Assembly: GCA_001795615.1 (NCBI GenBank) | Contig: MGKI01000002.1 | Location: 2,760 to 66,759 of the forward strand | DNA: 64,000 nucleotides | Origin: Candidatus Yanofskybacteria bacterium RIFCSPLOWO2_01_FULL_42_49 | Lineage (GTDB): Bacteria; Patescibacteriota; Minisyncoccia; 2-02-FULL-40-12; GWA2-44-9 | Direction: 5' to 3' | Shown here: piece by piece, positions 5,630-56,731 of the stretch | Numbering within the stretch: position 1 is the stretch's first letter | How the letters are laid out: the number at the start of each line of letters is the position of its first letter | Notes under the pieces: generated by a model | Told to the model about the DNA's origin: nothing | Seen by the model: the letters and a program-made list of their open reading frames with translations, nothing else | Databases searched by the model: none | Made by a program: the position numbers and the translations under genes

Positions 5630-5795
5630 AATAAAATAATCTCTAAATCCTAAACACCTGCCTGCCGGCAGGCAGGAATCCAAAATTCTCAGCCTGAGGC
5701 TGATCCGCCTCTGGCGGAAAATATTTAAACTGTTTTTGATTTTGATATTTGGTCATTTGATATTGTTTAGAAATTAGATATTAGAAATTAGAAAT

Positions 5796-6050
5796 TTAAT
5801 CAACTCTGTTGATTATTGTCCATCTTTTGTCTTTCGACACCGGCTTTGTTTCTTTTATCAAAACTTTTTCGCCTATTTTATAAACGCCCTCCGCATCATG
5901 TGCCTTGAATCTTTTAGACACACTATAGTATTTTTTGTATTTTGGATGCTTTTTCATCCGCGAAACTTCAACAACTACAGTTTTCTGCATTTTATCAGAC
6001 ACCACAACGCCTTTTAATATTCTCTGTTTTGAATTTTGAATTTTAGTCAT
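5796..6050 (-). CDS. rpsQ: 30S ribosomal protein S17
   Basis: GVVVSDKMQKTVVVEV...KYKKYY...KAHDAEGVYKIGEKV. Confidence 0.9.
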   Translation of the reverse strand: MTKIQNSKQRILKGVVVSDKMQKTVVVEVSRMKKHPKYKKYYSVSKRFKAHDAEGVYKIGEKVLIKETKPVSKDKRWTIINRVD

Positions 6051-7436: not shown

Positions 7437-7946
7437 TTATATGGCTTTTCTTCTGAACACTCTCTTGCCCAAACTCTTTAAAACATTTTCTTTTCGACCC
7501 AATTCTGTTTTAATTTCCGGCCTTTTTACTTCTTGTTTGTCAGATTCCGATGTTTGTCCGAATTCCTTTTCCTTGACCCTCTTTTCAATCGGCGATCTCT
7601 TTAAACCAGCTACCCTCTCCGCTAAAATTACTTCTATGTGGCTCGTTTTCTTTTCTATTGGGGAAACCCTTCCAAAACCTTTCGGCTTGAACCTCTTCAG
7701 CTTAACACCTTCGTCAACCTTTATACTTTTAACATACAGGTTATCTTTTACCATGTTGTAGGTGTTTTCTGCATTAGCTATGGCCGATTTTAATAACTTT
7801 ATAACAGGCGAGCTCGGACGCTTAATCATAGCCTCAAGTTGACTAATGGCATCAAGCGCATTTTTTCCTTTTATCAGATTCGAAACAGCTCTAACCTTTC
7901 TTGGAGCCAATCGTAGGTTATTCAGTTGTGCTTTTACTTCTGCCAT
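7437..7946 (-). CDS. rplV: 50S ribosomal protein L22 with a ~50-aa basic C-terminal extension
   Basis: AKAQLNNLRLAPRKVRAVSNLIKGKNALDAISQL... Confidence 0.85.
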   Translation of the reverse strand: MAEVKAQLNNLRLAPRKVRAVSNLIKGKNALDAISQLEAMIKRPSSPVIKLLKSAIANAENTYNMVKDNLYVKSIKVDEGVKLKRFKPKGFGRVSPIEKKTSHIEVILAERVAGLKRSPIEKRVKEKEFGQTSESDKQEVKRPEIKTELGRKENVLKSLGKRVFRRKAI

Positions 7947-8019
7947 TTTTAGGTTTTAGATTTTAGGTTTTAGATTTTAGGTTTTTTACCTAATTACCTA
8001 ACACCTATCACCTAATAAG

Positions 8020-13756: not shown

Positions 13757-15880
13757 TCACTTCTTCCCTTCTTTAATGAGCTCCGCAATATTATTCGGTA
13801 CTGGCTCATAATGGTCAAACTCCATATTAAATGTCCCTCTGCCTTCGGTCAAGGACCTCAAAGATGTCGCATATCCGAACATTTCTGACAACGGAACCCG
13901 CGAATCAACAACTTTAAGATTCAAGGGGCTCCTGTCGTTTATGCTCAAAATCTGGCCACGCCTTGAGGCCAAGTCACCCGTAACTTCTCCCATAAAATTG
14001 TCGGGCATTATAATCTCAACTTTCATTATCGGTTCCAGCAATATGGCTTTGGCTCTCCTGGCAGCTTCTCCAAGAGCGGTTGATGATGCAATTTTGAAAG
14101 CAATTTCTGACGAGTCAACATCGTGGTACGAACCGTCATACAAAGTAACCTTCATATCAACCATCGGGAAACCGGCAACGACTCCTTTGTCCAAGGCTTC
14201 TCTAACGCCTTTCTCGCAAGGGTTGATAAATTCTTCCGGTATGGCTCCCCCTCTGATAGCATTAACAAATTCAAAGCCGGAGCTTCTGTCTTTCGGCTCT
14301 ACTCTTAACCATACATGGCCGTACTGGCCGCGGCCTCCCGACTGACGAATATATTTCCCTTCCGCTTCTGCGGTACCGGTAATTGTTTCTTTGTAAGCAA
14401 CCTGGGGACGGCCGACGCTTACCCCCACGCCAAATTCTCTTTTCAGTCGGTCGACAATTATTTCAAGGTGCAGCTCGCCCATTCCGGAAATAATTGTTTC
14501 GGCAGTCTCCTCATCGGTTTTAATCCTAAAAGTAGGATCTTCGTCTGAAAGCTTCCTTAATGCCAGGCTCATTTTTTCCTGGTCGGCTTTTGTTTTTGGT
14601 TCAACCCTCAGAGATATGACCGGCTCAGGGACTTCTATGCCCTCCAAAACTGCCGGGTTATCAGGATCGCAAAGCGTATCTCCCGTTTTCGTGTCTTTCA
14701 AGCCAACCGTTGCGGCGATATTGCCGGCATATATTTCTTTGATCTCTTCTCTTTGGTTGGCGTGAAGCCGAACAATACGGCTTATCCTTTCCTGTTGTCC
14801 GCTTCTGGTGTTAAGAACATAGGAACCGGATGCCAGTTTTCCAGAATAAACCCTAAAAAAAGTAAGAGAACCGACAAACGGGTCAGTTGCGGTTTTAAAC
14901 GCCAACGCGGTAAACGGAGCATTTTCGTCAGCTGAAACCAGTTTTGTCTGGCCAGTTTTTGAGTCCACGCTGCTGGTCGGAGGTATGTCTATCGGGGAAG
15001 GCAAGTAATAAGCAACGGCATCAAGCACAAGCTGAACACCTTTATTTTTCAAAGCAGAACCGCACAAAACAGGGAAAATTTTATTTTCTATAGTTGCTTT
15101 TCTTAATATCTCCCTCAACTTGTCCAGGCCGACTTCTTTTCCTTCAAGGTAATCAGACATTGCTTTATCATCCTGCTCAACTATTTTTTCAATGGCAACC
15201 GCTCTTTCTTTTTCAGCTTCTTGTTTTAGGTGTTCCGGTATTGCGCTTTTTACCACCTTCTCCCCTCTTTCGCCCTCAAAGGTTATGTATTCCATCGTAA
15301 GCAAATCGACAATGCCCTTGAATTGATCTTCATGTCCATCGGGTATCTGTAGTTTCACGGCAAACGGAGAAAGACGACCGAGGATTGATTGGAAAGATCG
15401 TTCGAAAGAAGCACCCAGCCGGTCAAGCTTGTTAATAAAACAAATCCTCGGCACCTGATAGTCATCGGCATACCGCCAGTTTGTTTCTGACTGGGGCTCT
15501 ACTCCGGCCACACCATCAAAGACCACAACAGCCCCGTCCAAAACACGCAAAGAGCGCTTGACCTCAATCGTAAAATCAATGTGTCCGGGGGTGTCGATAA
15601 TGTTGAGTTTGTACTTATTATCTGTCTGCTGATGGCTGATGACTGATGGCTGATGGCTAGTGGGGGTCCAATAAGCGGTAGTAGCTGCCGCGGTTATGGT
15701 TATCCCTCTCTCCCTTTCTTGTTCCATCCAGTCCATTATGGTATCTCCTTCATGGACCTCCCCTATCTTGTGGGAAATACCGGTATAAAAAAGAACCCTC
15801 TCTGAGGTCGTGGTCTTGCCGGCATCAATATGAGCAATGACGCCGAAGTTACGAATTTTATTTATTGGATAATCGGCCAA
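13757..15880 (-). CDS. fusA: Elongation factor G
   Basis: AHIDAGKTTTSERV, DTPGHIDF and the five-domain EF-G layout; it carries a small repeat insertion in the G domain. Confidence 0.95.
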   Translation of the reverse strand: MADYPINKIRNFGVIAHIDAGKTTTSERVLFYTGISHKIGEVHEGDTIMDWMEQERERGITITAAATTAYWTPTSHQPSVISHQQTDNKYKLNIIDTPGHIDFTIEVKRSLRVLDGAVVVFDGVAGVEPQSETNWRYADDYQVPRICFINKLDRLGASFERSFQSILGRLSPFAVKLQIPDGHEDQFKGIVDLLTMEYITFEGERGEKVVKSAIPEHLKQEAEKERAVAIEKIVEQDDKAMSDYLEGKEVGLDKLREILRKATIENKIFPVLCGSALKNKGVQLVLDAVAYYLPSPIDIPPTSSVDSKTGQTKLVSADENAPFTALAFKTATDPFVGSLTFFRVYSGKLASGSYVLNTRSGQQERISRIVRLHANQREEIKEIYAGNIAATVGLKDTKTGDTLCDPDNPAVLEGIEVPEPVISLRVEPKTKADQEKMSLALRKLSDEDPTFRIKTDEETAETIISGMGELHLEIIVDRLKREFGVGVSVGRPQVAYKETITGTAEAEGKYIRQSGGRGQYGHVWLRVEPKDRSSGFEFVNAIRGGAIPEEFINPCEKGVREALDKGVVAGFPMVDMKVTLYDGSYHDVDSSEIAFKIASSTALGEAARRAKAILLEPIMKVEIIMPDNFMGEVTGDLASRRGQILSINDRSPLNLKVVDSRVPLSEMFGYATSLRSLTEGRGTFNMEFDHYEPVPNNIAELIKEGKK

Positions 15881-15959
15881 AACTAGGTTTTAGGTTTTAG
15901 GTTTTAGGTTTTAGGTCCTCAACTAACACCTATTACCTAAGACCTAACACCTGATTTTC

Positions 15960-19114: not shown

Positions 19115-19188
19115 CGGGACGGAGTATGCCGGTAGTACGCGTCCATGGGGTGGATGTAGACCGGGTTCGATTCCCGGCGTCCCGACCA
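19115..19188 (+). tRNA. tRNA-Pro (anticodon GGG) with encoded CCA
   Basis: Cloverleaf folded by hand: acceptor CGGGACG/CGTCCCG, D-stem GTAT/GTAC, anticodon stem CGTCC/GGATG with loop AT-GGG-GT (G37), T-arm CCGGG-TTCGATT-CCCGG, then ACCA. Confidence 0.8.
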
Positions 19189-19233
19189 ACTAAATCTAAA
19201 CGGCTCACTGGGTGAGCCGTTTAGATTTAGTTG
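19187..19233 (+). terminator. Long perfect hairpin (22-bp stem, TGG loop) directly after tRNA-Pro
   Basis: caactaaatctaaacggctcac-tgg-gtgagccgtttagatttagttg. Confidence 0.5.
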
Positions 19234-19408
19234 GTCGCAATTGCTAAACGAGACTTGGCAACAACACCTAAAAACACGCCAGTTGGCGTGTTTTTAGGTA
19301 AGCCCTCCTTTATCTCAAAGTCTTCAGCATTTTGCAAAGTGGGTTTCCGCAGGATAACCCCACGGGGTTATCATCATGTAAGAATCCCTAACAAAATAAT
19401 TTGTCCAA

Positions 19409-19680
19409 GGGAGGCAGAACTCAAACTAGCATCACTTGAGCGGAGTCAATTTTGACTATATTCAAGGCGTCGAGGAGTGATTCGTACTTAATGTACGTAA
19501 GCGACGAGCAACGAAGAATATAGTCAAAATTGACCCGCCCCCAGGGGGAAGCTCAAAAATGGCTGATTTCTTTGTTGTGACTCCTTGAAGTAGTGTTAAA
19601 CTACATCTTCGTCATCACACCAAACAAATCATCTCATTTTTGAGCTTCTCAAGTTGATGATAGTTTGAGTTCTGCTTCCC
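19409..19680. repeat. Copy A of a ~270-nt structured repeat element (MITE-like or ncRNA-like) with ~26-nt terminal inverted repeats
   Basis: gggaggcagaactcaaactagcatca ... tgatgatagtttgagttctgcttccc. The core is ~85-90% identical to the reverse complement of 55905-56175. Confidence 0.6.
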
Positions 19681-19711: not shown

Positions 19712-20185
19712 TTATAGCTCATCTTCGGCATAATAGAAGTGGATATCCGGGCGCGAGTAGCTGAAAATCTCGTTTTTGTTGAAGAATATCCCTATTTCCC
19801 TTTTAGCCGCCTTAAGATCTTCCGAAGAATGGATAATATTGGCTGAAGTTGACATCCCGTAGTCCCCCCTTATCGTGCCCGGTAGAGCGTTCTTGCCATC
19901 TGTCGGCCCGCACATACTTCTGACCACTCGAATAACATCTAATCCTTCGAGTATAACCAGTATCACGGGCAACAACTTCATAAACTTCTTCAGGTGCGGT
20001 AAAAAATGTTTACCCTTGTGTTGGGCATAGTGTTTATCCAAAAGCAGGTCGGACATCTTGAGCATCTTCATACCAACCGGCCTTATTCCTTTTTGCTCAA
20101 ACCTGTCTAAAATTTCCCCGACTATCCCCCGATGGATAGCATCGGGTTTCATTATTATTAATGTTTTTTCTTTAGTATTCGGCAT
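19712..20185 (-). CDS. ndk: Nucleoside diphosphate kinase
   Basis: TLIIMKPDAIHRGIVGEILDRFEQKG..., active-site NIIHSSED. Confidence 0.85.
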   Translation of the reverse strand: MPNTKEKTLIIMKPDAIHRGIVGEILDRFEQKGIRPVGMKMLKMSDLLLDKHYAQHKGKHFLPHLKKFMKLLPVILVILEGLDVIRVVRSMCGPTDGKNALPGTIRGDYGMSTSANIIHSSEDLKAAKREIGIFFNKNEIFSYSRPDIHFYYAEDEL

Positions 20186-29677: not shown

Positions 29678-30916
29678 TTATGGCAAAAAGTTCTTCAGCC
29701 AGTCAGTAATTTTTGAGATGGCACCGTTTGCTTCAGGCAGTAATTTCTGTTTTTGTCCGCCTAGCTCTTTGTCTATCCCCCACAAGACCAAGCCGACCGA
29801 GACAGAAAATGAAGGATCGCCGACAATATTGTTTGCGCCGTCAAAACCTAACGGCTCAGCTACTCTTACCGGCAGTCGCAGCCTATCCTTAACCAAGAAA
29901 GCAAAGCCGGGTAAATTTGAACCGCCACCTGATAAAACAACTCCTGCCGGCAATATACCGTTTTTTGAAACTTTTTTAAGTTCTGACTCTACGATGTCAA
30001 GCAATTCCCCTATTCTGGCATCGACAACTTTAACAAGCTGTTTCTTTGGCACGACAAAATTTTCTTCTCCTATTATTTGCGATAAGTCGATATTGTCCCT
30101 TTTTCTCAGATCTTCTAAGTTTGATGTGGAACAATGTTCAAGTTTAATTCTTTCTGCGATGTTAAGGGATGTTCTCAACGCAACGGCCAAGTCGTTGGTG
30201 ATGTGTTTCGAACCGATTGGTATTACGGCGCTGTGAATTAGGTCGGCTTCTTCAAATACCGCCAGTGTAGAAGTGCCCCCGCCAAAATCAAGATTAATCA
30301 CTCCGTGTTCTCTTTGGCTTTTATTTAGAGACGAGAGAGACGCGGCAAGCGGAGCATATACAAGTCCTGAAACTTCAATGCCGTTTTCATTGACGCACTT
30401 GGCTATATTTCTAAGATACGGGGATAAACCGTCTATAATAAGCGCATCCGCCTCAAGACGAACCCCTTTCATCCCCAAAGGATTTTTAACATATTCCGTA
30501 CCGTCAACAACAAAGTTTCGGGGAATGACATGAATTATCTCTCTGTTGGCCGGCATGCTCACAACCGAAGCGGCCTGAATAACTCTATCTATATCGTTCT
30601 GGGATATTTCATTATCCGCCCTGGATACGGCAATAACGCCTCTGGAAACTTGGGTTTTAATGTGAAGACCGTTAATGCCGACATAAGTTTTCTTTATCTG
30701 CACACCCGCCATTGCTTCAGCTTTCTGAATAGCTGATTTAATGTTATCGATAGTTTCCTCCATGTCTACAACCATCCCTCTGCGCAACCCCTCCGATTCG
30801 GCACTGCCCGTACCCAATATTTCCGGCCTTAAACTGCCGCTGTTTATTCTAGCAACGACAACTTTCACTTGAGAGTTACCTATATCGATACCGGAAATTA
30901 AATATGGACGAGCCAA
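29678..30916 (-). CDS. ftsA: Cell division protein FtsA
   Basis: Actin-like ATPase (GIDIGNSQVKVVVA, DFGGGTSTLAVF); adjacent to ftsZ. Confidence 0.9.
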   Translation of the reverse strand: MARPYLISGIDIGNSQVKVVVARINSGSLRPEILGTGSAESEGLRRGMVVDMEETIDNIKSAIQKAEAMAGVQIKKTYVGINGLHIKTQVSRGVIAVSRADNEISQNDIDRVIQAASVVSMPANREIIHVIPRNFVVDGTEYVKNPLGMKGVRLEADALIIDGLSPYLRNIAKCVNENGIEVSGLVYAPLAASLSSLNKSQREHGVINLDFGGGTSTLAVFEEADLIHSAVIPIGSKHITNDLAVALRTSLNIAERIKLEHCSTSNLEDLRKRDNIDLSQIIGEENFVVPKKQLVKVVDARIGELLDIVESELKKVSKNGILPAGVVLSGGGSNLPGFAFLVKDRLRLPVRVAEPLGFDGANNIVGDPSFSVSVGLVLWGIDKELGGQKQKLLPEANGAISKITDWLKNFLP

Positions 30917-30970
30917 CTAGGTGTTAGGTGTTAGGTGTTAGGTGTTAGAGATGTTTCTAAAACCTAGAAG

Positions 30971-31492
30971 CTAAAACCTAAAAGCTTTTATAATTTTTCC
31001 TTCCAATTTAAACATCTTCTCCGCCTCTCTCTTGGATTTTTCATGCTCATATCCTTTTAAATGCAAAAATCCGTGCACAACTAGCTGTGCCAACTTTTGT
31101 TCTATAGTTATATTCTCTCGCTTTGCCTCATTTTTGGCAATGGATAAGCAGATGAAGATGTCGCCGATATCATAGAAACTGAGAAATTGAGAAATTGAGA
31201 AATTAGATTTGTTTTGAATCGGGAAAGACAAAACATCGGTGGGTTTGTTTTTGTTACGGTATTTTTTGTTTAATTCTTGAATTCTTTTCTCCCCCACCAG
31301 ATTGACGCTAACACTCAACTTGCCTTTGAGTTTTAGTTCTCGAGTAGCCATTTCCAAAATTTTTTTGAAAAAAATCCGCCTGGGAGCTTTTCTTTCTTTA
31401 TAATTTTTTCCGCCAGAGGCGGATCCGCCTTCGGCGGAGAAAACAAGATCGAAATTTTTATTCATTGGCTCGATTTTACCACTAAACCTCAA
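30971..31492 (-). CDS. ybeY: Endoribonuclease YbeY
   Basis: HGFLHLKGYEHE metal-binding motif at the C-terminus. Confidence 0.8.
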   Translation of the reverse strand: MRFSGKIEPMNKNFDLVFSAEGGSASGGKNYKERKAPRRIFFKKILEMATRELKLKGKLSVSVNLVGEKRIQELNKKYRNKNKPTDVLSFPIQNKSNFSISQFLSFYDIGDIFICLSIAKNEAKRENITIEQKLAQLVVHGFLHLKGYEHEKSKREAEKMFKLEGKIIKAFRF

Positions 31493-31583: not shown

Positions 31584-31706
31584 AAACTACCGGGAGGGGC
31601 AGACACCGAGATGCGAAGTCGCATCGTCGCGGGAAGCGTGGCCGACGCGGAGACCGTCCGAGTCGAAGCGGCCAACGTTGACGAAGTAGCCGCCGGAAGA
31701 CCGCAC
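31584..31706 (-). other. DGR variable region VR1
   Basis: 123 nt aligned to TR by hand; every substitution maps to an adenine of TR. Confidence 0.8.
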
Positions 31707-32414
31707 ACCGGACCAGTCCCACTTATCCTCTAAGAGAGTTTCTTTGTTTTCTCCGTAGTAGAGAAATGTATCATAGACAATTTCTACAGGTGTCCTGCGT
31801 TTAACCAATGCCGGGTCAATGTTATTTTGCTTAGCCCAGTTTTTTAGCACTTCTTCTTGTTGATCCCAATTCTTGCTCAACGAGTCCGGCAAGACGGATT
31901 TCATAACAAGACCCCAGCCAAGCTTGGGAGTTCCTTCAAGAGCAAACTTTTCCTTATCAAACCATCCATCACCCTTACTTCGATAAAACATTTTCTTCTT
32001 CTTTTCCTTGGGATCACCCAAAGTATCTCCACCTGAAAACTTTTCTCGTATTTGATCAATGGTTAGGGGCTTAGCTTCCTTGCCTTCACCGATGCTTGGC
32101 ACTCGAAGTACCAGCATCATTCCCAATTGTTTTGCCTGTTCCAACTCCTCTCTGGTAAATGGTATGTTTTCAATCTCTTGCAATTCATCCGGAGTAAGTT
32201 CGACACCGTAGGTTGTTTTAATTGCCTCTGGGCCAAGAAAGTCCTTACCAAATATCTCTCGAGCCTCATCAAATTCAATGTTTACTTCTTTAGCCTCAGG
32301 CACCAGACCTTCTTTCTTGGCAGTATCTAAAGCCTGCTCAACCTTTTTCTGAGTAGAGTTTTTGAACTTATCTGGCTCGTATTCTTCGTAGATTTTGTAG
32401 GCTTCAAATGGCAT
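31587..32414 (-). CDS. DGR target protein 1; the C-terminal CLec-like variable region ends ...HLGVCPSR.
   Basis: The C-terminal 40 codons are homologous to TR (35702-35824), and all differences sit at TR adenines. It is 80% identical to the paralog at 34491-35318. Confidence 0.8.
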   Translation of the reverse strand: MPFEAYKIYEEYEPDKFKNSTQKKVEQALDTAKKEGLVPEAKEVNIEFDEAREIFGKDFLGPEAIKTTYGVELTPDELQEIENIPFTREELEQAKQLGMMLVLRVPSIGEGKEAKPLTIDQIREKFSGGDTLGDPKEKKKKMFYRSKGDGWFDKEKFALEGTPKLGWGLVMKSVLPDSLSKNWDQQEEVLKNWAKQNNIDPALVKRRTPVEIVYDTFLYYGENKETLLEDKWDWSGVRSSGGYFVNVGRFDSDGLRVGHASRDDATSHLGVCPSR

Positions 32415-32415
32415 A

Positions 32416-34404
32416 TTATAGGTCTTGGGTATATTTTAGAATAACTTTTTGAACTGCATGAGGCAACGCTTTAATATCTGTTATTACTTCGGCATCCGGC
32501 TTGTAGGTTTCTCTAACGGCTTGACCTGATTCAGTCATGCCCAATCCTAAACAAATAACCCCCTTATTCCTTAACTGAAGTAAAACAGTTTGGACTTTTC
32601 CTGAATCTTGGCTTTCGCCATCAGAAAGTACAACAATAACTTTTCTTCTTAATTTTTCTCTTAACTCTTTTTCTTGTTCCGGAGTTATTGAATCAAGAAC
32701 TTCTTCAAGAGAAAGGTAATCTGGCGTACCGCCACCAGCTTTGTGCATTTTTTTCCAAATACCAATTCTATCTTTTTCTGACAAGTCAGGTGATAACGAT
32801 TTTAGTTCTACATCGCCAAAGTCACCAAAAGCTCTAGTTTCAGTTCTGACTTGAAGTCCCAACGAAACACCACTCTCAAATTCGGCTTCTTCTATTTCTT
32901 TTTGAAAATCAGCTAGAGATTCCAGGAATAGGAGTTTGCTCTTGCGGTCCATCTCAAGCTTACCGCCTTCATTCATAGAACCAGATAAATCATTAACTAA
33001 AGACATATCAAGCATGCCATAGCCCTCCTGCTCTCGTTTATGCCTCTCAATCTCTCTAAATGCCCTTGGTTGGCCTCCGGCTCGCGATTCAATAGAAGAA
33101 TCAACCAATGTGTCCTCGGCTAGTTCTTCGCCTTCTGTTTTGAGCTGAGGCGAAAATTGCCATCGTTCTTTTAATCGCCTGGCAATGATCTTCTTAAAAA
33201 CTTCCCTTAGCTCGGCTACCAGGGGAGCGATCTCTTCATACTCCTTGCGATAACCAAGAACATCCTCGGCACTGACTCCATGCTCACGAGCCCATTCCTC
33301 AAGAATATTTTGTTCAAGAGTTGGTTGTCCGCCTTTTTTAGCAACTATTTCTTCCATCAACTTCTTGATTTCCTTTTCTTCGGCATGCGTTATGGGTTCT
33401 GGATGACCGTCATGGTAGGTCTTATACTCTTTCTTAAATTTCTTTTCAGCCGCTTCTCTGGCGGCACGGTCACTGGATTTCTTATCTCCACCTTTACTAG
33501 GTTGTTCTTCTTTGCCTTTTCCTTCTTGGGGTGTTTCCTTTTTTCTTTGCCACCATTTTTTCTTATCCTGGCCTGAACCTTGGCCTTGTTGAGGTTTATC
33601 AGAAACTTGAGTGTCCGTGGGTGACCCTTCACCCTGATCCTTGCTTTTACCGCTTTTCTTTTCTTCTTCTAAATCTTTTTCATAGAGTTCTCGATAGATA
33701 GGTTCGACAATTGTTCGCATTATTTGAAAACGATCTTTGGGGTCAATGGTTGGTGTAGTAACCAGATCAAGAATATCTATTTTATCTGAACCAAAGCTTC
33801 TCAATTTATCCAAAGCGGCCTGGGCTTCTGATCCAAGCTGTACCGCTTCTTCTGGCACCATCATCTGGCGAATAAAACCGTAAGTAAACTGAACATGAGA
33901 GGATTTATCGGTATAGTCAGTCGGTGGGAACATCTTTTCTCGGTAGAGTTGTTCTCGAGTTTCTTCTAGGAAAGGAAGTTCAGCAACAATACGTCTGTTA
34001 CCCAAAACATCTTCAAAGATATTGTATAAAAGATGGAGATGACCTTTTGCGCTGTATCGTTTGGCTTCTTTTAAGACAAGTTCCGGATTACGCATAAGCT
34101 CGCCATAGTGAGCCATAAGTTCGTGGGTGGTGGCAAAGAGAGTTTCCTGGAGGCTATAGCCACGTTCTATGAAGAATTTTGGATCGTAAATTAACTTTCG
34201 ATTTTGAAAATCAAATGCCCAACCGCCGTTACCTCGTTCAAGGGTAATATCACCCCTCAACCCGTAAGCTCCTAGTATTTCAGTTTCCTTATTTAAAAAT
34301 TCCTCGACGGCTTGAGCATCAATTTCGCTTTCCTGTTTTGGAACCTCTGGTTTTGGTTCGTCTTGAGGAGTTTCTATTCGATTTATGGGAAATGATTCTG
34401 GCAT
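32416..34404 (-). CDS. Protein with an N-terminal putative HExxH metallopeptidase-like region and a C-terminal von Willebrand factor A (MIDAS) domain, encoded between the two DGR targets
   Basis: HELMAH motif; a long K/E/Q/G-rich disordered middle; VWA with DLSGSM (DxSxS), a T (GGTPDY) and a VIVVLSDGES motif. Confidence 0.65.
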   Translation of the reverse strand: MPESFPINRIETPQDEPKPEVPKQESEIDAQAVEEFLNKETEILGAYGLRGDITLERGNGGWAFDFQNRKLIYDPKFFIERGYSLQETLFATTHELMAHYGELMRNPELVLKEAKRYSAKGHLHLLYNIFEDVLGNRRIVAELPFLEETREQLYREKMFPPTDYTDKSSHVQFTYGFIRQMMVPEEAVQLGSEAQAALDKLRSFGSDKIDILDLVTTPTIDPKDRFQIMRTIVEPIYRELYEKDLEEEKKSGKSKDQGEGSPTDTQVSDKPQQGQGSGQDKKKWWQRKKETPQEGKGKEEQPSKGGDKKSSDRAAREAAEKKFKKEYKTYHDGHPEPITHAEEKEIKKLMEEIVAKKGGQPTLEQNILEEWAREHGVSAEDVLGYRKEYEEIAPLVAELREVFKKIIARRLKERWQFSPQLKTEGEELAEDTLVDSSIESRAGGQPRAFREIERHKREQEGYGMLDMSLVNDLSGSMNEGGKLEMDRKSKLLFLESLADFQKEIEEAEFESGVSLGLQVRTETRAFGDFGDVELKSLSPDLSEKDRIGIWKKMHKAGGGTPDYLSLEEVLDSITPEQEKELREKLRRKVIVVLSDGESQDSGKVQTVLLQLRNKGVICLGLGMTESGQAVRETYKPDAEVITDIKALPHAVQKVILKYTQDL

Positions 34405-34487
34405 TTAGATGTGTTTATATAAAATTTTTTCGAAAGCCCAAGGAGACCAATAAGAATCAAGGGGTCCGAGCGCCCAAGCACCCTACG

Positions 34488-34610
34488 AAACTACCGGGAG
34501 GGGCAGACACCGAGACCCGAACTCGCATGGCCGCGGGAAGCGCCGTCGACGCCGAGACCGCCCGAGCCGAAGCGGCCAACGCGGACGAAGTTGCCGTCGG
34601 AAGACTGCAC
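34488..34610 (-). other. DGR variable region VR2
   Basis: Aligned to rc(TR); about 16 substitutions, all at TR adenines. Confidence 0.8.
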
Positions 34611-35318
34611 CTCGGTCCAATCATATTTATCCTCCAGTAGTGATTCTTTGTTTGCTCCATAGTATATCAGGGTATCATATGCAATTTCCACGGGTGTTCT
34701 TCTCTTAACTAGGGTAGGGTCTATATTATTGTCCTTTGCCCATTTCTTTAGAACTTCTTCTTGTTGATCCCAGTTTTTGCTTAATGAATCCGGTAATACG
34801 GATTTCATGACTAGACCCCAGCCGAGCTTAGGAGTGTCCTGGGTCACAAATTTTTCATTGTCATACCAACTTTCGCCTTTTTTACCATAAAAGACTTTTT
34901 GTTTCTTTTTCTTGGGATCACCCAAGGAATCGCCCTTGGTAAATAGTTCTCTGGCAGAATCAATGGTTAGAGGCCGTTCTGTTTTGCCTTCGCCGAGTCT
35001 GGGTACTCTTAGAACCAACATCATACCAAGTTGTTTGGCTTGTTCAAGCTCCTCTCTGGTGAAAGGGATGTCTTCTACCTCCTTGAGTTCATCTGGCGTC
35101 AACTCTACACCGAAAGTAGTTTGAATTGTTTCTGGTCCTAAGAAATCTTTGCCGAATATTTCTCGAGCTTCTTCAAATTCAACATGGACCTCCTTTGCCT
35201 CAGGTACTAGCCCTTCTTTTTTAGCGGTATCTAAAGCTTGCTCAACTTTCTTTTGAGTAGTGGTTTTAAACTTATCCGGTTCGTATTCCTCGTAGATTTT
35301 GTAGGCTTCAAATGGCAT
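34491..35318 (-). CDS. DGR target protein 2, paralog of 31587-32414
   Basis: Same architecture; the C-terminal VR differs from TR only at A positions. Confidence 0.8.
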   Translation of the reverse strand: MPFEAYKIYEEYEPDKFKTTTQKKVEQALDTAKKEGLVPEAKEVHVEFEEAREIFGKDFLGPETIQTTFGVELTPDELKEVEDIPFTREELEQAKQLGMMLVLRVPRLGEGKTERPLTIDSARELFTKGDSLGDPKKKKQKVFYGKKGESWYDNEKFVTQDTPKLGWGLVMKSVLPDSLSKNWDQQEEVLKKWAKDNNIDPTLVKRRTPVEIAYDTLIYYGANKESLLEDKYDWTEVQSSDGNFVRVGRFGSGGLGVDGASRGHASSGLGVCPSR

Positions 35319-35701
35319 GGTTCGATCAACTCACCACAAGTGGTGTAGTCGGAACTTTATTACATAAATATACAGTCAAAAATAGAATTTTACCAGCCCT
35401 TTTATAGTTGGGTATTTTATGTAATAATATTATTGAGTTTTGTTAATAGAGATTAAGCTCGGCTCAGGCTAGTTTAATCTTACGAACCTCCTCTTTTTGA
35501 TATCCACCGGAGTTCTTGTGGCCTATGGCTATAAGGAGTGGCGTGGCCGGAAAGTAGTAAAAACTACGAAACTACGTGTTTTATTTCAGCGTAGATGTCC
35601 TGCGAAAATCGAAGGACTGCTACCAGGTAAAATTCAGGGGAGAATCTTTTGATAATCCCCGGTGGCTATGGAGCGCTCATGGAGGGAATAAAACATATCG
35701 G

Positions 35702-35824
35702 TGCAGTCTTCCGACGGCAACTTCGTCAACGTTGGCAACTTCGACTCGGACGGTCTCAACGTCAACAACGATTCCCGCGACAATGCGAATTCGAATCTCG
35801 GTGTCTGCCCCTCTCGGTAGTTTT
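35702..35824 (+). other. DGR template repeat (TR); non-coding and AAC-rich
   Basis: No start codon in frame. It encodes SSDGNFVNVGNFDSDGLNVNNDSRDNANSNLGVCPSR in the frame matching the VRs and ends with an IMH-like GC-rich tract that differs from the VRs by a T/C change. Confidence 0.85.
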
Positions 35825-35828
35825 GTCT

Positions 35829-35871
35829 AAGTAAGTAATAGGCCTTCTTTCGAAGGCCTATTACTTACTTA
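35829..35871. terminator. Strong hairpin directly downstream of TR and overlapping the avd stop codon
   Basis: taagtaagtaataggcctt-cttt-cgaaggcctattacttactta. Confidence 0.5.
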
Positions 35872-36243
35872 CTCGCGAGTGGATCGAATCCAACCGCCAA
35901 GCATTTTGCCGATTTCTTGAATGTGGTTTTGGCAAACTATATACCTTTTGTCGCTCAATACGCCGAGGTCGCTTGCCATGCGAATAAACACTTTAAGGAT
36001 ATCAAGCTTGTTGCTGACCGATTCTAGAATCGGCAGCTTGTGGCTCTTGCTTGTTTGAGCTGCAAGCATAATGCCCTCAAGAATCTTTAATATGTATTCT
36101 TCGCAACGCTGTCCGAGCGTGTAGCGGTCTTTCTTGGGAAAATCAAGCTCAAAGATATAAAATTCTTTTAGAAAATCATGAGTTTTCTTAAAGATAGGAA
36201 TATCCAGGCTAAATTTCCCGTCATAGTTATGAGAGTTTTCCAT
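35869..36243 (-). CDS. avd: DGR accessory variability determinant (Avd), four-helix-bundle family
   Basis: 124 aa; C-terminal IQEIGKMLGGWIRS matches the Avd family pattern (cf. bAvd ...LIAEVGRILGSWI); adjacent to the RT. Confidence 0.75.
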   Translation of the reverse strand: MENSHNYDGKFSLDIPIFKKTHDFLKEFYIFELDFPKKDRYTLGQRCEEYILKILEGIMLAAQTSKSHKLPILESVSNKLDILKVFIRMASDLGVLSDKRYIVCQNHIQEIGKMLGGWIRSTRE

Positions 36244-37281
36244 AATGTTTTTAATAAGATTATTAGTTTAGAGAATTTGGTAATCTCGTGGAGGGAATTT
36301 CGAATTGGCAAAAAGCATCGGAGAGATACGCTGATCTTTGAGCGTGACCTGGAAGATAATCTGTGGGGACTTCACCGAGTTCTTGTGGATAGAACATATA
36401 AGCATTCCGGATATTCCTCATTTTTCGTCCAAGACCCGAAAGTAAGACACATCCACAAAGCATTGGTTCGAGATCGTGTTTTGCATCATGCCATAGTGAA
36501 GCACCTTAATCCAATCTTTGAACCAACTTTTATTTATGACTCCTATTCCTGTCGGATCGACAAAGGAACCCACCGGGGAGTAGAAGCTTTTGCTGAACAT
36601 GCTCGGCAAGTCAGCAAGAATTGGACCATTCCATGCTGGGTGCTCAAATGCGACGTCAGAAAATTCTTTGCCAGCATTGACCACAAAGTTTTGCTAGACA
36701 TCGTATTCAAGCAGGTAACGGATCTGGATGCCCGATGGTTAATAAATGAAGTGATCTCAAGTTTCAAATCAGAATTTACAATTAACCCCGAGAAGCCTAA
36801 GGGATTGCCAATTGGAAATCTGACTTCGCAGCTTTTTGCCAATGTGTATCTCAATGAGCTCGACCAATTCATGAAGCATCAGTTGAAAGAAAAACATTAC
36901 ATTCGTTATGCAGATGATTTTGTGATACTACATCCTCAAAGAGACCATTGTTTAAATATCGTAAAGCCAATAAATGCCCTCCTTAAAGAAACTCTCAAGC
37001 TGGAACTCCATCCAAATAAAATTACGGTCAGAAAATTTAGCCAAGGAGTCGATTTCTTGGGTTATGTTTGTTTTCCACATTTTGTAATACCAAGAGTTAA
37101 AACCGAATGTAGGATTTTTAATAAAATTCATAGAAATATTTTGCTATTTAAGCATAATCAGCTCAGTCTTGAATCGCTAAACCAAAGTATCCATTCATAT
37201 TTCGGTATTCTTTCGCATAGCGATTCTTTCGAACTGCAACAAGGGCTTGAAAATCAAATATTTTTCTGGCTTACACAATAA
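36229..37281 (+). CDS. DGR reverse transcriptase
   Basis: RT motifs including YADDFVI. The DGR-specific motif-4 signature LPIGNLTSQLFANVYLNELD has SQ in place of the QG of other RTs. N-terminal ENLVISWREF...RVLHHAIVKHLNPIFEPTFIYDSYSCRIDKGTH. Confidence 0.9.
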   Translation: MRVFHNVFNKIISLENLVISWREFRIGKKHRRDTLIFERDLEDNLWGLHRVLVDRTYKHSGYSSFFVQDPKVRHIHKALVRDRVLHHAIVKHLNPIFEPTFIYDSYSCRIDKGTHRGVEAFAEHARQVSKNWTIPCWVLKCDVRKFFASIDHKVLLDIVFKQVTDLDARWLINEVISSFKSEFTINPEKPKGLPIGNLTSQLFANVYLNELDQFMKHQLKEKHYIRYADDFVILHPQRDHCLNIVKPINALLKETLKLELHPNKITVRKFSQGVDFLGYVCFPHFVIPRVKTECRIFNKIHRNILLFKHNQLSLESLNQSIHSYFGILSHSDSFELQQGLENQIFFWLTQ

Positions 37282-37709: not shown

Positions 37710-38171
37710 CTATTTTTCCAACTCTTCTTTCACTATCCTGCTTACCGTTTGCCCGTCGGCTTTTCCTTTTAGTTTGAGCATCAGCACACCTAATACTTTT
37801 CCCATTTCCTTTATCTCCTTAGCGCCGGTTTCCGCTATCGCCTTTTTTACTTCGGCTCTTATCTCATCCTCCGACATTTGTTCCGGCATATATTCCATCA
37901 ACACAGTGAGCTCGTCTCTTTCTTTCTGGGCAAGCTCTCCCCTCCCTGCTTTTTCGTAAACTTCTATTGACTCTTTTCTTTTCTTAACTTCCGAAGTAAT
38001 CACTTCCAGGACTTCTTCGTCTGAAAGTTCTTCGGCTTTGCCGGACTTTGCCCTTTTTTGCAATTCTTTATTTTTTATCGCGCTTTGAAGCAAACTTAAA
38101 ACCAACCGCTTTAGAGTGTTGCCTGACTTCATCGCTTCTTTCATGTCGTTTTTAAGTTTTTCTTTTAACAT
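37710..38171 (-). CDS. yqeY: GatB/YqeY domain protein
   Basis: 153-aa helical protein with the YqeY pattern. Confidence 0.65.
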   Translation of the reverse strand: MLKEKLKNDMKEAMKSGNTLKRLVLSLLQSAIKNKELQKRAKSGKAEELSDEEVLEVITSEVKKRKESIEVYEKAGRGELAQKERDELTVLMEYMPEQMSEDEIRAEVKKAIAETGAKEIKEMGKVLGVLMLKLKGKADGQTVSRIVKEELEK

Positions 38172-38189
38172 AGGCTAGGTTTTAGGTTA

Positions 38190-38555
38190 TTAGCTTCTAG
38201 GTTTTAGGTTGTCAATCAAAGAATTCAACATTTTCATAACTTCCATTAGCAGTTGATCTGCCTTATTATAGTTTAGACTTTTTGTTTTAGCCAACCTTTT
38301 AGCTATTTCTATCTGTGTTTCTAATTCTGCACCCGAACCATATGCATTTAGTAAAAAATGCCTATAGTCTTTTCTCGTGCCACGCAATCGTCCTTCTGCG
38401 ATATTAGACGGTATTGAGATGGATGCTCTTCTCATCTGAGAAGTTAACCCATAATTTTCTTCTTTGGGAAAATCTTCAGTTAGAAGATAAACCTCCGTTA
38501 CAAGATTCATGGCTTTTTGCCAAACTATTAAATCCTTATATCCATTTAGAACCAT
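38190..38555 (-). CDS. Four-helix-bundle protein of the 23S rRNA intervening-sequence / Avd-like family
   Basis: DLIVWQKAMNLVTEVY...FPKEENYGLTSQMRRASISIPSNIAEG...FLLNAYGSGAELETQIEIA is the canonical family motif. Confidence 0.8.
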   Translation of the reverse strand: MVLNGYKDLIVWQKAMNLVTEVYLLTEDFPKEENYGLTSQMRRASISIPSNIAEGRLRGTRKDYRHFLLNAYGSGAELETQIEIAKRLAKTKSLNYNKADQLLMEVMKMLNSLIDNLKPRS

Positions 38556-38606
38556 AATCTTTCTCTCCTAGTCCCCTCCTAAAACCTAACACCTAAAATC
38601 TAAAAC

Positions 38607-38873
38607 CTATAACCCTAATTTTTGTTTCATTTTGCGCTTTTCCTCTTCAAATGTCTCATCGTCATACTTGCCAAGCTTGGTCAGTCGTTTCCTTAATTCG
38701 CCAAGGTGCATACCCATAATAGCGGCATTTTTTTCTTTTCTTTCGTTCATTTTTTTCTGACGATGTTGATCCTTCTTTGCTTTAAGCAAAACTCCGCTTT
38801 GCTGAACAAAACGGTTAAATCGTCTCATTAAACTCCCCACTGACTCGTTCGGTTTTCGTTTTACTTCAACCAT
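38607..38873 (-). CDS. rpsU: 30S ribosomal protein S21
   Basis: VEVKRKPNESVGSLMRRFNRFVQQSGVLLKAKK; basic; 88 aa. Confidence 0.75.
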   Translation of the reverse strand: MVEVKRKPNESVGSLMRRFNRFVQQSGVLLKAKKDQHRQKKMNERKEKNAAIMGMHLGELRKRLTKLGKYDDETFEEEKRKMKQKLGL

Positions 38874-48865: not shown

Positions 48866-49041
48866 AATATTTTGAAATCTCTAATTTCAAAATATCAAAA
48901 TCTTTAAAAAATTATATTTGGAATTCCTGCCTGCTGGTAGGCAGGTGTTTAGATATTAGAAATTATAAATTCCAGACAACTGGCTTGGCAGTTATCTGGT
49001 ATTATGTTATATTTTACCATAAGATCTTTGTGTTTTAAAGG

Positions 49042-50153: not shown

Positions 50154-50394
50154 TGCGCGCGTACGAAGAGGTTTATAACCTTAAACTACCGGCGCTCCTT
50201 CCCAAATTTTTGTTCTTTGCTCTTTTTCCTTTTTTCTAAATCTCCGTACGCTGTTTCGACGGCTTTATTGGCGCGTTTCCATTCTTCGCTGTCTTTTCCA
50301 TAAACATCTTCGGCAATACTCATTGCAGAACCTTCGTTGGCGGCGCTTTGCGCCGCCAACGAAAAAGTCGGTCAATTTTCTGAAAGTCAGATTT

Positions 50395-50505
50395 TGGTGG
50401 GTGCGGTAGGAATCGGACCTACGACCTTCCACTTATCAGACGGATGCTCTACCAAGCCGACGTTACAGTCGGCTCCCCGACCGAAGCGTCGGGGCTGAAC
50501 TACGT
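50395..50505 (-). pseudogene. 3' two-thirds of a tRNA-Ile(GAT)-like gene (D-arm with a 39-nt twin-hairpin insertion, anticodon arm, T-arm, acceptor 3' strand, CCA) lacking its 5' acceptor strand
   Basis: rc sequence gtagttcag[cccc...gtcggc]ttggtagagcatccgtctgataagtggaaggtcgtaggtccgattcctaccgcacccacca. The matching 5' acceptor gggtacg lies about 430 bp away at 50936-50942. Confidence 0.5.
50443..50505. repeat. 63-bp direct repeat, copy 1, flanking the GIY-YIG/tRNA-Ile cassette
   Basis: Identical to 50872-50934 except for one mismatch. Confidence 0.8.
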
Positions 50506-50512
50506 TATTTTG

Positions 50513-50584
50513 TGGGCGTGCTAGGAATCGGACCTAGGACCTCCTTTTTATCAGAAAGGCGTTCTACCACTGAACTACACGCCC
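50513..50584 (-). tRNA. tRNA-Ile (anticodon GAT); CCA not encoded; T-loop TCCGATT
   Basis: Hand fold: acceptor GGGCGTG/CACGCCC, D-stem GTTC/GAAC, anticodon stem CCTTT/AAAGG with loop CT-GAT-AA, T-arm CTAGG-TCCGATT-CCTAG. Confidence 0.75.
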
Positions 50585-50598
50585 ACAAAATAACCTAA

Positions 50599-50862
50599 TT
50601 ATGGTTTTATTTTTATAAAACCATCTCTGACTATTTTTTCAATAAAATCTCTCCGCTTAAGTTTTTTAAGTTTTAATTCAACCTCTCTCGCTTCTTTTAT
50701 GTTCATATATTCTTGAATTAAAACTGGCTCAGGATTTATCATCCTTTTAGTCGTATAAGTCCCCCCGTATTTATGGTGAGCTAACCTTCTTATTATGTTA
50801 TTGGTACTGCCAATATAATACTTGTGACCATTGTCTTTCAAAAAATACACATATCCTTTCAT
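50599..50862 (-). CDS. Small stand-alone GIY-YIG nuclease, YhbQ/UPF0213-like
   Basis: GYVYFLKDNGHKYYIGSTNNIIRRLAHH (GIY...YIG...R); 87 aa. Confidence 0.8.
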   Translation of the reverse strand: MKGYVYFLKDNGHKYYIGSTNNIIRRLAHHKYGGTYTTKRMINPEPVLIQEYMNIKEAREVELKLKKLKRRDFIEKIVRDGFIKIKP

Positions 50863-50871
50863 GGTGTTATT

Positions 50872-50934
50872 GATGCTCTACCAAGCCGACGTTACAGTCG
50901 GCTCCCCGACCGAAGCATCGGGGCTGAACTACGT
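50872..50934. repeat. 63-bp direct repeat, copy 2, immediately upstream of the GIY-YIG start; it carries the 5' acceptor and D-arm half of the disrupted tRNA.
   Basis: See copy 1. Confidence 0.8.
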
Positions 50935-54496: not shown

Positions 54497-55810
54497 TCAA
54501 ACTCTTTCTATGATCAGGCATCCGCCCTGGCCACCGCCCACGCACATAGTAATTGCGGCATAGCGTTTCTGATATTCCAATAATTCGTGCATAGCCTGAA
54601 CTGTTAGCTTTGCACCAGTTGCCCCAACAGCATGGCCAAGAGCAATAGCTCCACCATGGACATTCAACTTCTCGTCAGGAATATGAAGTCCTCTCTGACA
54701 AGCAATCGCTTGAGACGCAAAGGCCTCATTGAGTTCAAATAAATCAATGTCTTCAATCTTCAGCCCGGCTTTAGCGAGTGCCTTAGGAACAGCAAAGATA
54801 GGTCCTTCGCCCATCAGTGCCGGATCGCAACCGGCATATGCATAGGACACTATATATGCCAACGGAGTAAGTCCCAATGAAACAGCTTTTTCTTCGGTCA
54901 TGATCAAGAGTGCCGCCGCGCCATCATTCATTGGACAGGCATTAGTCGGAGTTACTGTACCGCCGAGATGGTACGTTTTCTCAATAACGAACGTGCCGGT
55001 TTTGTCGATATAGAAATTTACATCATTTTCAATCGGATTCATAATATTCTCATTCATGAATATGGCAGGCGCACCAGATGCGGATCCAGGACTTTTGGCT
55101 AGTTTCTCGCTTGGACTTTCGTCTTGTGAAAATACAACCTGACCTCCCGGAATAATCTTATCATCTGATTCAACACCCCCTCGGATACGCATTCTGTCTT
55201 GAATTTTTAACGGAAGGATTTGCGCATCAAATTTTTGATTCTCTCGAGCATCACACGCCTTTTGGTGAGAACGCACCGCATATTCATCCTGCTCTTCGCG
55301 GGTAATTCCCCATTTTTGGGCAACATTTTCAGCTGTCCGTCCCATCATTTGTTTAATGTTGGGATCAAAAAGTCCATCCCACAAGGCGTCTGTAAGAATA
55401 TGGTTTTGCATCCTAAGTCCGAACCTCGCATCTTTCATAACATATGGCACTTGCGACATATTTTCGGTTCCACCGACAAGAAATATTTCCCCGTCCCTAG
55501 CCGCAGCGGCCTGGCACGCCGAAGTGATCGCCTCAATTCCTGACGCACAATTTCGTGCAACTGTCCGCGCCGGAACACCTTGGGGAACCTTTGCATAAAG
55601 AGCCGCAACGCGGGCAATATTGGCTTTGGGCTGGCATATATTACCAGCCACAACTTCATCAATTTGGGCCGGATCAATGCCGCTCTTTTTTACCACATGA
55701 CGAAAACAATATGCCAAAAGAAACTCTGCGGGAACATTTTTCAAAGCACCGCCAAATTTGCCGATAGCAGTCCTGATTCCGCCTACAATAACCATTCTTT
55801 TTGTCGTCAC
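54497..55810 (-). CDS. Acetyl-CoA C-acetyltransferase (thiolase)
   Basis: Thiolase signatures (ARNCASGIEAI, NVHGGAIALGHAVGATG, CVGGGQG). Confidence 0.9.
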   Translation of the reverse strand: MTTKRMVIVGGIRTAIGKFGGALKNVPAEFLLAYCFRHVVKKSGIDPAQIDEVVAGNICQPKANIARVAALYAKVPQGVPARTVARNCASGIEAITSACQAAAARDGEIFLVGGTENMSQVPYVMKDARFGLRMQNHILTDALWDGLFDPNIKQMMGRTAENVAQKWGITREEQDEYAVRSHQKACDARENQKFDAQILPLKIQDRMRIRGGVESDDKIIPGGQVVFSQDESPSEKLAKSPGSASGAPAIFMNENIMNPIENDVNFYIDKTGTFVIEKTYHLGGTVTPTNACPMNDGAAALLIMTEEKAVSLGLTPLAYIVSYAYAGCDPALMGEGPIFAVPKALAKAGLKIEDIDLFELNEAFASQAIACQRGLHIPDEKLNVHGGAIALGHAVGATGAKLTVQAMHELLEYQKRYAAITMCVGGGQGGCLIIERV

Positions 55811-55904
55811 TTTTCCGCCTTTGTTAAGGTGCCAATTACAGTTTAGCCATAATTAACATTTCATAAATCTCTTGTCAAAATTTATATAGTATGGTAGTAT
55901 CCAG

Positions 55905-56175
55905 GGAAGCAGGTTGAGAATTATAATCAAGTTGAGAAACTTAAAAATGAGATGATTTGTTTGGCGCGACGACGAAGATGTAGTTTTACACTACTTCGAG
56001 AAGGAGCAACAAAGAAATCAGCCATTTTTGAGTTTCCCTTGGGGGCGGGTCAATTTTGACCATCTTCCACGTTGTTCGTCACTCGCGTACATAAAAGTAC
56101 GCATCGTTCCTCAACGCCTTGAATATGTGCAAAATTGACTCCGCTCAAGTGATTATAATTCTCAACCTGCTTCCC
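55905..56175. repeat. Copy B of the ~270-nt structured repeat element, in inverted orientation relative to copy A
   Basis: Terminal inverted repeat gggaagcaggttgagaattataatca / tgattataattctcaacctgcttccc; the core matches rc(19409-19680). Confidence 0.6.
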
Positions 56176-56179
56176 TACT

Positions 56180-56731
56180 ATGGCTGATGCTACAAATCTA
56201 CAACATGTGCATACGGCTTTAAAGAAAAAATTCTCGAATAGAAAATTGATTTTCGGAAGGGGTTTAATTGGTTCAAAAATCGTATTCGTCAGCGATCATC
56301 CCGGGGCTGAAGGAGCAAAAGAGGGCAAACCCTTGGCCGGAAATAATCAAAAACTGCTCAACAAACTTCTCCGTTCCGCAGGCATTGATACAAATAAAAT
56401 TTATATCACAAACGTCATCAAATATCATCCCGAAAACAAAAAACCGACGTCGAAAGAGATAAAATCATATGTCCCCTTTTTGAAAGAAGAGATAAAAACC
56501 GTCGGACCGAAAGTTGTAGTCACCCTTGGCGACATTGCTTTAAACGGAGTGGGGTTGAGGCAACCTCTTGATAATGTTCACGGAAGAACTTTCAATCTCG
56601 GCAGTTTTACGTTAGTTCCGACATTCCATCCGGAATCAGCCCTAAAAGATCCGGTGGTACAAACACTCCTTCAATCAGACATCTCAAAACTCAAAAAAAT
56701 AATAGCAGAAGCAGAAGAAAACCAAGTCTAA
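56180..56731 (+). CDS. Uracil-DNA glycosylase superfamily protein (family 4/5-like)
   Basis: IVFVSDHPGAEGAKEGKPLAGNNQKLL resembles the family-4 GEAPG...PFVG motif; HPE near the C-terminus. Confidence 0.7.
   Translation: MADATNLQHVHTALKKKFSNRKLIFGRGLIGSKIVFVSDHPGAEGAKEGKPLAGNNQKLLNKLLRSAGIDTNKIYITNVIKYHPENKKPTSKEIKSYVPFLKEEIKTVGPKVVVTLGDIALNGVGLRQPLDNVHGRTFNLGSFTLVPTFHPESALKDPVVQTLLQSDISKLKKIIAEAEENQV

Follow-up and report, generated by a model that had tools for sequence, protein, structure and literature searches.

The window analysed here is the whole stretch of 64,000 nucleotides from Candidatus Yanofskybacteria bacterium RIFCSPLOWO2_01_FULL_42_49. It contains two copies of a structured repeat, hereafter A and B (Table 1). 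Copy A is located in the spacer between tRNA-Pro and the 3' end of ndk. Copy B is found on the opposite strand, between the thiolase and UDG genes, with the UDG start codon 4 nt away. An earlier note on this DNA had described both copies as intergenic, and the gene context confirms this placement. The coordinates that it had given for A are also correct, as is the opposite orientation of B, but B proved to be one base longer than had been proposed. The nearest homologues of the window ndk carry the names Candidatus Yanofskybacteria or Paceibacterota, and the host is thus a CPR bacterium.

A and B are nested palindromes that share 86% identity. For the cores we measured 85.6% identity over 236 nt, in agreement with the approximately 85–90% previously estimated. 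The folding energies of A and B are about -138 and -123 kcal/mol, with z-scores from -11.6 to -15 versus shuffles, on both strands. Core 20-mers and 26-mers occur only at A and B in the window and have zero occurrences in shuffles of the window. Of the structural parts first listed for both copies, namely a GC hairpin, a cgtac/gtacg hairpin and a 19-bp pairing (gtcaattttgac), all are present in A, but the 19-bp pairing, which belongs to hairpin P2, has decayed in B to about 10 bp plus mismatches. Likewise, the arms of the inverted repeat had been described as perfectly self-complementary within each copy. This holds for B, whose arms are perfect over 27 nt, but not for A, whose arms are about 91% complementary. 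A variable 13-nt block had been considered the outermost part of the repeat. This turned out to be wrong, as 9 conserved nt (GGGARGCAG) adjoin the block on its outer side.

Table 1. Features of the window, with positions counted from its first nucleotide.
Feature	Position	Strand	Remarks
Copy A	19409..19680	+	272 nt; flanks AA (5'), AT (3')
A: P1 5' arm (terminal inverted repeat)	19409..19439	+	helices 1-2
A: variable block as delimited in the earlier note	19418-19430		inside P1 5' arm
A: hairpin P2	19440..19538	+	tip is the cgtac/gtacg stem; helices 3-4
A: short GC hairpin P3	19539..19547	+	
A: hairpin P4	19548..19648	+	helices 6-9
A: P1 3' arm (terminal inverted repeat)	19649..19680	+	
Copy B	55904..56175	-	272 nt; in element orientation TA 5' (56177-56176), TG 3'
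B: P1 5' arm	56145..56175	-	palindrome ATTATAAT within its variable block
B: hairpin P2	56045..56144	-	basal stem partly degraded
B: hairpin P4	55936..56036	-	
B: P1 3' arm	55904..55935	-	
tRNA-Pro	19115-19188	+	neighbour of A
Conserved segment between tRNA-Pro and A	19231-19400		about 170 nt
ndk	19712-20185	-	neighbour of A
thiolase	54497-55810	-	neighbour of B
Promoter-like site TTGTCA-17-TAGTAT	55872..55900	+	upstream of B; consensus match only
UDG	56180-56731	+	neighbour of B
Diversity-generating retroelement	31584-37281		
Paralogous 275-aa genes of the retroelement	31587-32414, 34491-35318	-	variable repeats at 3' ends
Template repeat of the retroelement	about 35700-35826		
Reverse transcriptase of the retroelement	36178-37281	+	RVT_1, E = 1e-23
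Heptamer repeats	1166-1246, 2785-2851, 5733-5801, 7934-7988, 15856-15922, 30916-30986, 38156-38616, other sites		
GC-rich palindrome CCTGCCTGCCGGCAGGCAGG	5636-5686, 48916-48966		
Direct repeats around tRNA-Ile	50393-50934		
Truncated tRNA-like match	50406-50458		tRNA-Ile region

Metagenomes were scanned with a pattern that combined 14 fixed bases with purine/pyrimidine codes, which returned 66 loci. In 64 of these we found true copies, 71–94% identical to A or B and with no conserved ORF, in line with the initial description as a multi-copy, non-coding, MITE-like element. Stops interrupt all six reading frames, and the copies have no open stretch in common. One short ORF (MADFFVAPP...), open in B, was considered and rejected since in A, as in many other copies, it is terminated after 9 codons. 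In total, 47 distinct full-length copies were collected, 43 of which were aligned. The copies are 267–292 nt long, all are intergenic, and many lie 0–30 nt from an ORF end. Identity between copies at separate loci reaches 96.7%. The metagenomes come from groundwater and sediment (Rifle and Hainich, among others), and the hosts are groundwater CPR bacteria, i.e. Candidatus Yanofskybacteria and relatives. Scanning a genome collection with a core 20-mer gave two chance matches only. Many assembled contigs terminate inside the element, as is typical of a repeat, including the NCBI contig of this very organism, which starts within B. The lack of true matches in assembled genomes is therefore likely due to assemblies breaking at the element. 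Scans of viral contigs gave either nothing or chance matches within a phage gene, BLAST against annotated plasmids and phages detected no similar DNA, and a motif scan of the retrieved loci for remoter relatives gave chance matches in coding sequence only.

The consensus structure of the family is a closed four-way junction comprising P1, which involves both ends, the long hairpins P2 and P4, and the small P3, a GC hairpin of 4–5 bp. Among the 43 aligned copies, 97.6% of the cells are standard pairs, and double-sided changes are seen in 56 of 94 pairs (417 cells). The covariation score is 0.327 versus 0.144 in shuffles, and the observed values were reached by none of 500 shuffles. When partners were slid by 1–3 columns as a control, the count fell to 10–17 pairs. 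Compensatory changes were present in further copies when looked for. The covariation of the terminal stem that had been noticed in A and B is well supported, and all other helices likewise covary far beyond chance. Alternative Watson-Crick states are common, 28 of them being present in at least 6 copies. Unpaired states are mostly singletons (21 G.U, 19 A.C and 27 other), which looks like unfiltered recent mutation over a constrained lineage. In P3, 33 copies have CG at pair 145-151 and 9 have UA.

The conserved interior of P2 reads as tandem G.A pairs, with 5'-YGAGGAGY opposite 5'-GCGACGAR, and the flanking pair 73-112 covaries (18 copies with CG, 17 with UA). The same tandem-G.A motif is repeated in P4 on the opposite strand. 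Each strand therefore carries one such hairpin, and the two strands fold largely alike. The complementarity of GAGGAGC with GCTCCTC and of GCGACGA with TCGTCGC arises because a single motif sits on opposite strands. A cross-pairing of the internal loops through these sequences, or a pseudoknot, was rejected: covariation is absent and the pairing is lost where the sequences vary. A different structure, the GC-rich palindrome CCTGCCTGCCGGCAGGCAGG, recurs twice in the window and is also inserted inside P4 of one element copy (L040, alignment columns 216-235), a sign that these genomes may harbour a second mobile hairpin, of REP-like type.

The variable block of P1 forms a graded series from A to B, namely AACTCAAAC, AATTCAAAC, GATTCAAAC, GATTAGAAC, GATTAGAAT, GTTTAGAAT and GTTGAGAAT, and the 3' arm carries matching changes in most of these copies. 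The difference between A and B had been explained before by a flipped helix. The helix is not inverted, as family intermediates connect A to B by stepwise compensated substitutions; the likeness of the A 5' arm to the B 3' arm is a by-product of these substitutions. It had also been argued that the inverted repeats of a transposon would not covary in this way. This argument is weak: both ends are bound by one transposase, and inverted repeats can thus co-evolve.

The terminal inverted repeats are about 33 bp long, and a profile of the arms matches almost only pairs located about 270 nt apart. The sole solo match is an internally deleted remnant of 45 nt (L043:1914-1960), in which the 5' arm is fused to 11 nt from the very end of the 3' arm. 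It forms a 13-bp hairpin, and the 434-aa ORF upstream ends in a TAG stop made up of the flanking TA and the first G of the remnant. TA dinucleotides are enriched on both flanks. A TA flanks the 5' end in 28 of 43 copies and the 3' end in 18 of 43, plus TG in 9, while 13 of 43 copies have TA on both sides. The context of this TA is usually YTAR (Y-TA-R). Empty sites of both A and B have a single TA exactly at the junction. For B, a contig with identical UDG (locus L020) reads ...GGTAGTATC-TA-GTTACAT-ATG (GTATC-TA-GTTACAT), and the filled site of the window reads ...GGTAGTATC-CA-[element]-TA-CT-ATG. For A, the empty site GTCC-TA-AAGC (...GTCC-TA-AAGCTTGG...) is found in four related genomes with ndk 87–91% identical, and the window reads ...GTCC-AA-[element]-AT-GCTTGG.... 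Relatives in which the empty A site was seen are L088, L090, L092, L093 and L036. In a sister genome (ndk 91% identical) the A site is empty and two copies are present elsewhere on the same contig. However, the TA duplication is intact neither in A nor in B. Their flanks are degraded and the two ends are unequal, the filled site of A requires extra changes to be derived from GTCC-TA-AAGC, and simple duplication does not predict that TA is commoner at the 5' than at the 3' end in the family. At five junctions a long neighbouring ORF ends in a stop codon made up of the flanking TA and the element's first base, and one copy occupies the entire gap between two convergent genes. With ends G...C, the element restores TAG or TAA when it inserts into a stop codon.

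Searches for an autonomous partner or a transposase were negative for the window, about 740 kb of retrieved loci, viral contigs, and annotated plasmids and phages, and a scan for inverted repeats 0.7–3 kb apart revealed none with the ends of the element. Pfam analysis of ten window ORFs gave no transposase and one reverse transcriptase, which belongs to a diversity-generating retroelement. The TA preference would fit a derivation from IS630/Tc1-mariner transposons. Target-site duplication together with a cognate transposase had been named as the mark of an ordinary MITE; the TA evidence largely points to the former, but the searches yielded no cognate transposase. The initial suggestion of a PATE-like element fails because of the long terminal inverted repeats and TA flanks, which are absent from IS200/IS605 derivatives. 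Among the copies, L036:3566-3838 is a mosaic, as established by comparison with L082:4932-5204 and L078:647-919: it has the 5' half and flank of one copy and the 3' half and flank of another, with mismatched terminal arms as a result. This could be either a chimeric assembly or a recombination between copies. Metagenome assemblies of repeats can be chimeric, and this locus was graded as clearly so.

Several other features of these genomes were observed. The diversity-generating retroelement of the window includes, besides its reverse transcriptase, a template repeat and two variable repeats at the 3' ends of paralogous genes, with 14/15 and 17/19 mismatches at template adenines. Tandem heptamer repeats (TTTAGGT, TTAGAAA, TTTCTAG and variants) are present in many intergenic spacers, on both strands. 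Direct repeats surround tRNA-Ile, where a truncated tRNA-like match is found and a 63-nt segment is repeated 429 nt apart with 98% identity; tRNA-Ile and tRNA-Ala are present in the window, and no rRNA was detected there. In one relative (L093/L094:3162-4362), tRNA-Pro is absent downstream of ndk and a segment of about 1.2 kb is present instead. Its inverted-repeat arms are about 125–130 nt long, with no more than 4 mismatches over one stretch of 84 nt, and enclose a 230-aa ORF without Pfam match. This segment may be another mobile element.

The spacer that contains A has the ndk 3' end on one side and, on the other, a conserved structured segment beside tRNA-Pro. This segment of about 170 nt is kept in four related genomes. 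It has one hairpin with a compensatory swap (GATAACCCCGTGGGGTTATC versus GGTCCCGCCGTGGCGGGACC), and its last part is a two-way terminator-like hairpin, AAAAACACGCCAACTGGCGTGTTTTT. The segment could represent either a small RNA or the 3' UTR of ndk; at gathering score it has no match in Rfam. Concerning B, a promoter-like site is located upstream of the element. The site is conserved in the contig with the empty B site, where it directly precedes the UDG start codon. Since B is situated between this site and the UDG start, it would be part of the UDG 5' leader. Provided that this site serves as promoter of UDG, we can predict that UDG mRNA carries the whole of B as a folded leader, antisense to the family consensus.

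The two strands of the element were compared with regard to a possible function at the RNA level. The consensus fold has an energy of -112.6 kcal/mol for the plus strand and -108.2 kcal/mol for the minus strand, the plus strand being more stable in 24 of 43 copies only. Eighty pairs are predicted for both strands, and their non-Watson-Crick cells comprise 55 G.U, 31 A.C and 51 other. Wobble-only pairs particular to each strand number 127 for plus versus 97 for minus. The excess of G.U over A.C on the plus strand is about 1.8–2:1 and does not reverse when neighbouring genes point the other way. Orientation with respect to the neighbouring genes is random (12, 10, 8 and 7 over four classes). The symmetry of the strand tests and this random orientation make selection at the RNA level and at the DNA level inseparable here. 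No conserved internal promoter was found in the element, only weak and unconserved matches. Rfam 15 gave no match on A or B at gathering score, and at E <= 10 only hits to miRNA and snoRNA models that reflect hairpins in general and score far under threshold. The 3' end of many copies is GTTCGAATCCTGCTCTCC, which resembles a T-loop plus acceptor strand. A tRNA-like element was considered and rejected: the tRNA model is silent at E <= 10, and ARAGORN calls nothing on the copies.

Two distant relatives were identified with a profile of the family, L080:829-1130 (E = 8e-17) and L070:5477-5790 (E = 8e-13), both as core-only matches. They keep the four-helix architecture and the internal motifs, with additional hairpins inserted into P2. 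Their terminal repeats, 25–33 bp long, are unrelated in sequence to those of the main family. That the core is conserved over the termini is deduced from the extent of the profile alignments and from one alignment, the global alignment being uninformative. A core kept over the ends would be the reverse of transposase-bound ends around a neutral interior, and two sequences are too few for a strong claim. The functional unit might be the four-way-junction core with its tandem-G.A helices arranged symmetrically on both strands, carried by at least three unrelated sets of terminal repeats, rather than the termini, which we regard as unlikely. If true, the core would be either a host-relevant structured RNA spread through CPR genomes on MITE-like vehicles, or the part by which a mobile element is recognised in folded form (RNA or single-stranded DNA) instead of by its ends.

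Taken together, A and B are probably copies of a family of non-autonomous DNA transposons (MITEs) of about 270 bp, dispersed in Candidatus Yanofskybacteria and related CPR bacteria. The element family is previously undescribed and is a structured bacterial MITE of the type of bcr1, ERIC and Correia; a literature search on CPR bacteria found no such elements. A TA-targeting DDE transposase, IS630/Tc1-mariner-like or IS5-like, would act in trans to move the element. Transcription of neighbouring genes could read through the copies in either orientation. RNase III could plausibly cleave the long near-perfect P1 duplex, as it does in Correia elements, or the duplex could mark the end of a transcript. 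The compact fold may allow insertions to be tolerated in very short spacers, stop codons and 5' leaders, and lineages that keep the fold would be those that persist and spread. Less easily accommodated by the MITE interpretation are the lack of an autonomous partner or transposase in the sequence searched, the TA duplication that is intact in neither A nor B, the excess of 5' over 3' TA in the family (28 versus 18), and the two distant relatives that share the core and not the termini, the opposite of what is expected from a transposase-defined MITE. Resemblance of A and B by chance, or by a simple local duplication without wider meaning, can practically be dismissed: the presence of just two copies in the window is all that speaks for it, against the absence of the core 20-mers and 26-mers from window shuffles and the existence, across many samples and sites, of dozens of copies whose flanks are unrelated.

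The fold could also matter as DNA, either because the mobilising enzyme recognises single-stranded or cruciform DNA, or because a mutational process (template switching within quasi-palindromes, or conversion from arm to arm or copy to copy), and not selection on RNA, keeps the complementarity. We consider this possible but doubtful. It would agree with the equivalence of the strands and the dyad symmetry of the motifs, and also with the shared variants, nearly all of which are strict Watson-Crick swaps with few G.U intermediates (zero for pairs 13-305, 25-293, 51-134 and 52-133). Moreover, L060 and L064 have identical flanks and a core only 95% identical between samples, and the putative orthologues L037/L048 differ at nine subfamily-diagnostic compensated pairs, which suggests conversion. 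The differences within these two sets of loci point to either conversion between copies or chimeric assembly, and some mosaic copies are perhaps assembly artefacts. However, template switching would be expected to remove the conserved mismatches and internal loops from P2 and P4, whereas these are the parts conserved most. In addition, the roughly 240 nt between the P1 arms is a long distance for hairpin-templated correction, and no structure-specific transposase such as an HUH enzyme was seen nearby. Another explanation, to which we give little credit, is that the selected unit is a structured ncRNA, with a four-way-junction core and a tandem-G.A helix in the plus orientation, spread on MITE-like vehicles and with the terminal stem merely as a closing helix. 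The core conserved in two relatives with unrelated but still 25–33-bp terminal helices, the extra P2 hairpins resembling expansion segments, and the tandem G.A pairs of the interior beside a covarying pair would be in accordance with such an RNA. The same can be said of the ratio of G.U to A.C, about 2:1 on the plus strand whatever the direction of the neighbouring gene and 39 versus 11 in P2, and of the loss in the A-type subfamily of the minus-strand-acting motif of P4 while that of P2 is kept. On the other hand, the minus strand folds nearly as well and has its own wobble pairs (97 versus 127), the counts in both-strand pairs (G.U 55, A.C 31, other 51) are near those of random mutation, there is neither a conserved internal promoter nor a preferred orientation relative to neighbours, Rfam gives no match even at E <= 10, and conservation of the core over the termini is backed by just two distant relatives.

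The CPR bacteria have tiny, gene-dense genomes that are usually thought to be poor in mobile DNA. In such a genome, about two copies of approximately 270 bp per 64 kb represent a notable share of the non-coding DNA. The structured MITE is also a practical cause of contig breaks in metagenome-assembled genomes. It is a clear case of a MITE that keeps its fold over the whole sequence by compensatory change, and the stop codons and 5' leaders in which it lands survive the insertion. Should the core and not the ends prove to be the selected unit, this would point to an undescribed structured RNA or a structure-guided movement.

Correia, ERIC and RUP are well-known TA-duplicating elements. Like the element described here, ERIC/IRU and RUP are imperfect palindromes inserted at TA, but they are shorter (about 107–127 bp), have a simpler fold and occur in other phyla. 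They are co-transcribed with flanking genes, as is proposed for the present element. RUP is thought to be moved by an IS630-family transposase, and its candidate parent IS is known, in contrast to our element, for which none was found. PATEs, which derive from IS200/IS605, are similar to the element in being short and non-coding, with subterminal hairpins and conservation of structure over sequence. However, they have no terminal inverted repeats or target duplications, and their left and right hairpins are on the same strand, whereas the CPR element has 33-bp inverted repeats, TA flanks, and its hairpin motif on opposite strands in P2 and P4. The Correia/nemis elements of Neisseria share with it inverted repeats of about 26–33 bp, TA as the target site (duplicated in Correia and probably here), insertion near genes with the possibility of joining 5' leaders, and a long terminal duplex as potential RNase III substrate (see also PMC3184786). 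RNase III processing has been shown for Correia, whereas here it is a prediction. Correia elements are 100–155 bp long and form a single hairpin with IHF sites and promoter hexamers at the ends, and they have no sequence similarity with the present element. The bcr1 repeats of the Bacillus cereus group are MITE-like, with a cruciform-like RNA fold held by compensatory changes (PMC3184786). No sequence similarity was detected between bcr1 and our element, and bcr1 is transcribed (PMC3184786), whereas the element is known here from DNA sequence alone. Both are non-autonomous, intergenic and patchy among close relatives, and both have a cruciform-like structure with independent stem-loops and compensatory base changes. 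They differ in that bcr1 is about 155 bp long, is flanked by 5-bp direct repeats and belongs to Firmicutes (PMC3184786), whereas the element described here is about 270 bp long, forms a four-way junction and occupies TA sites in CPR bacteria.
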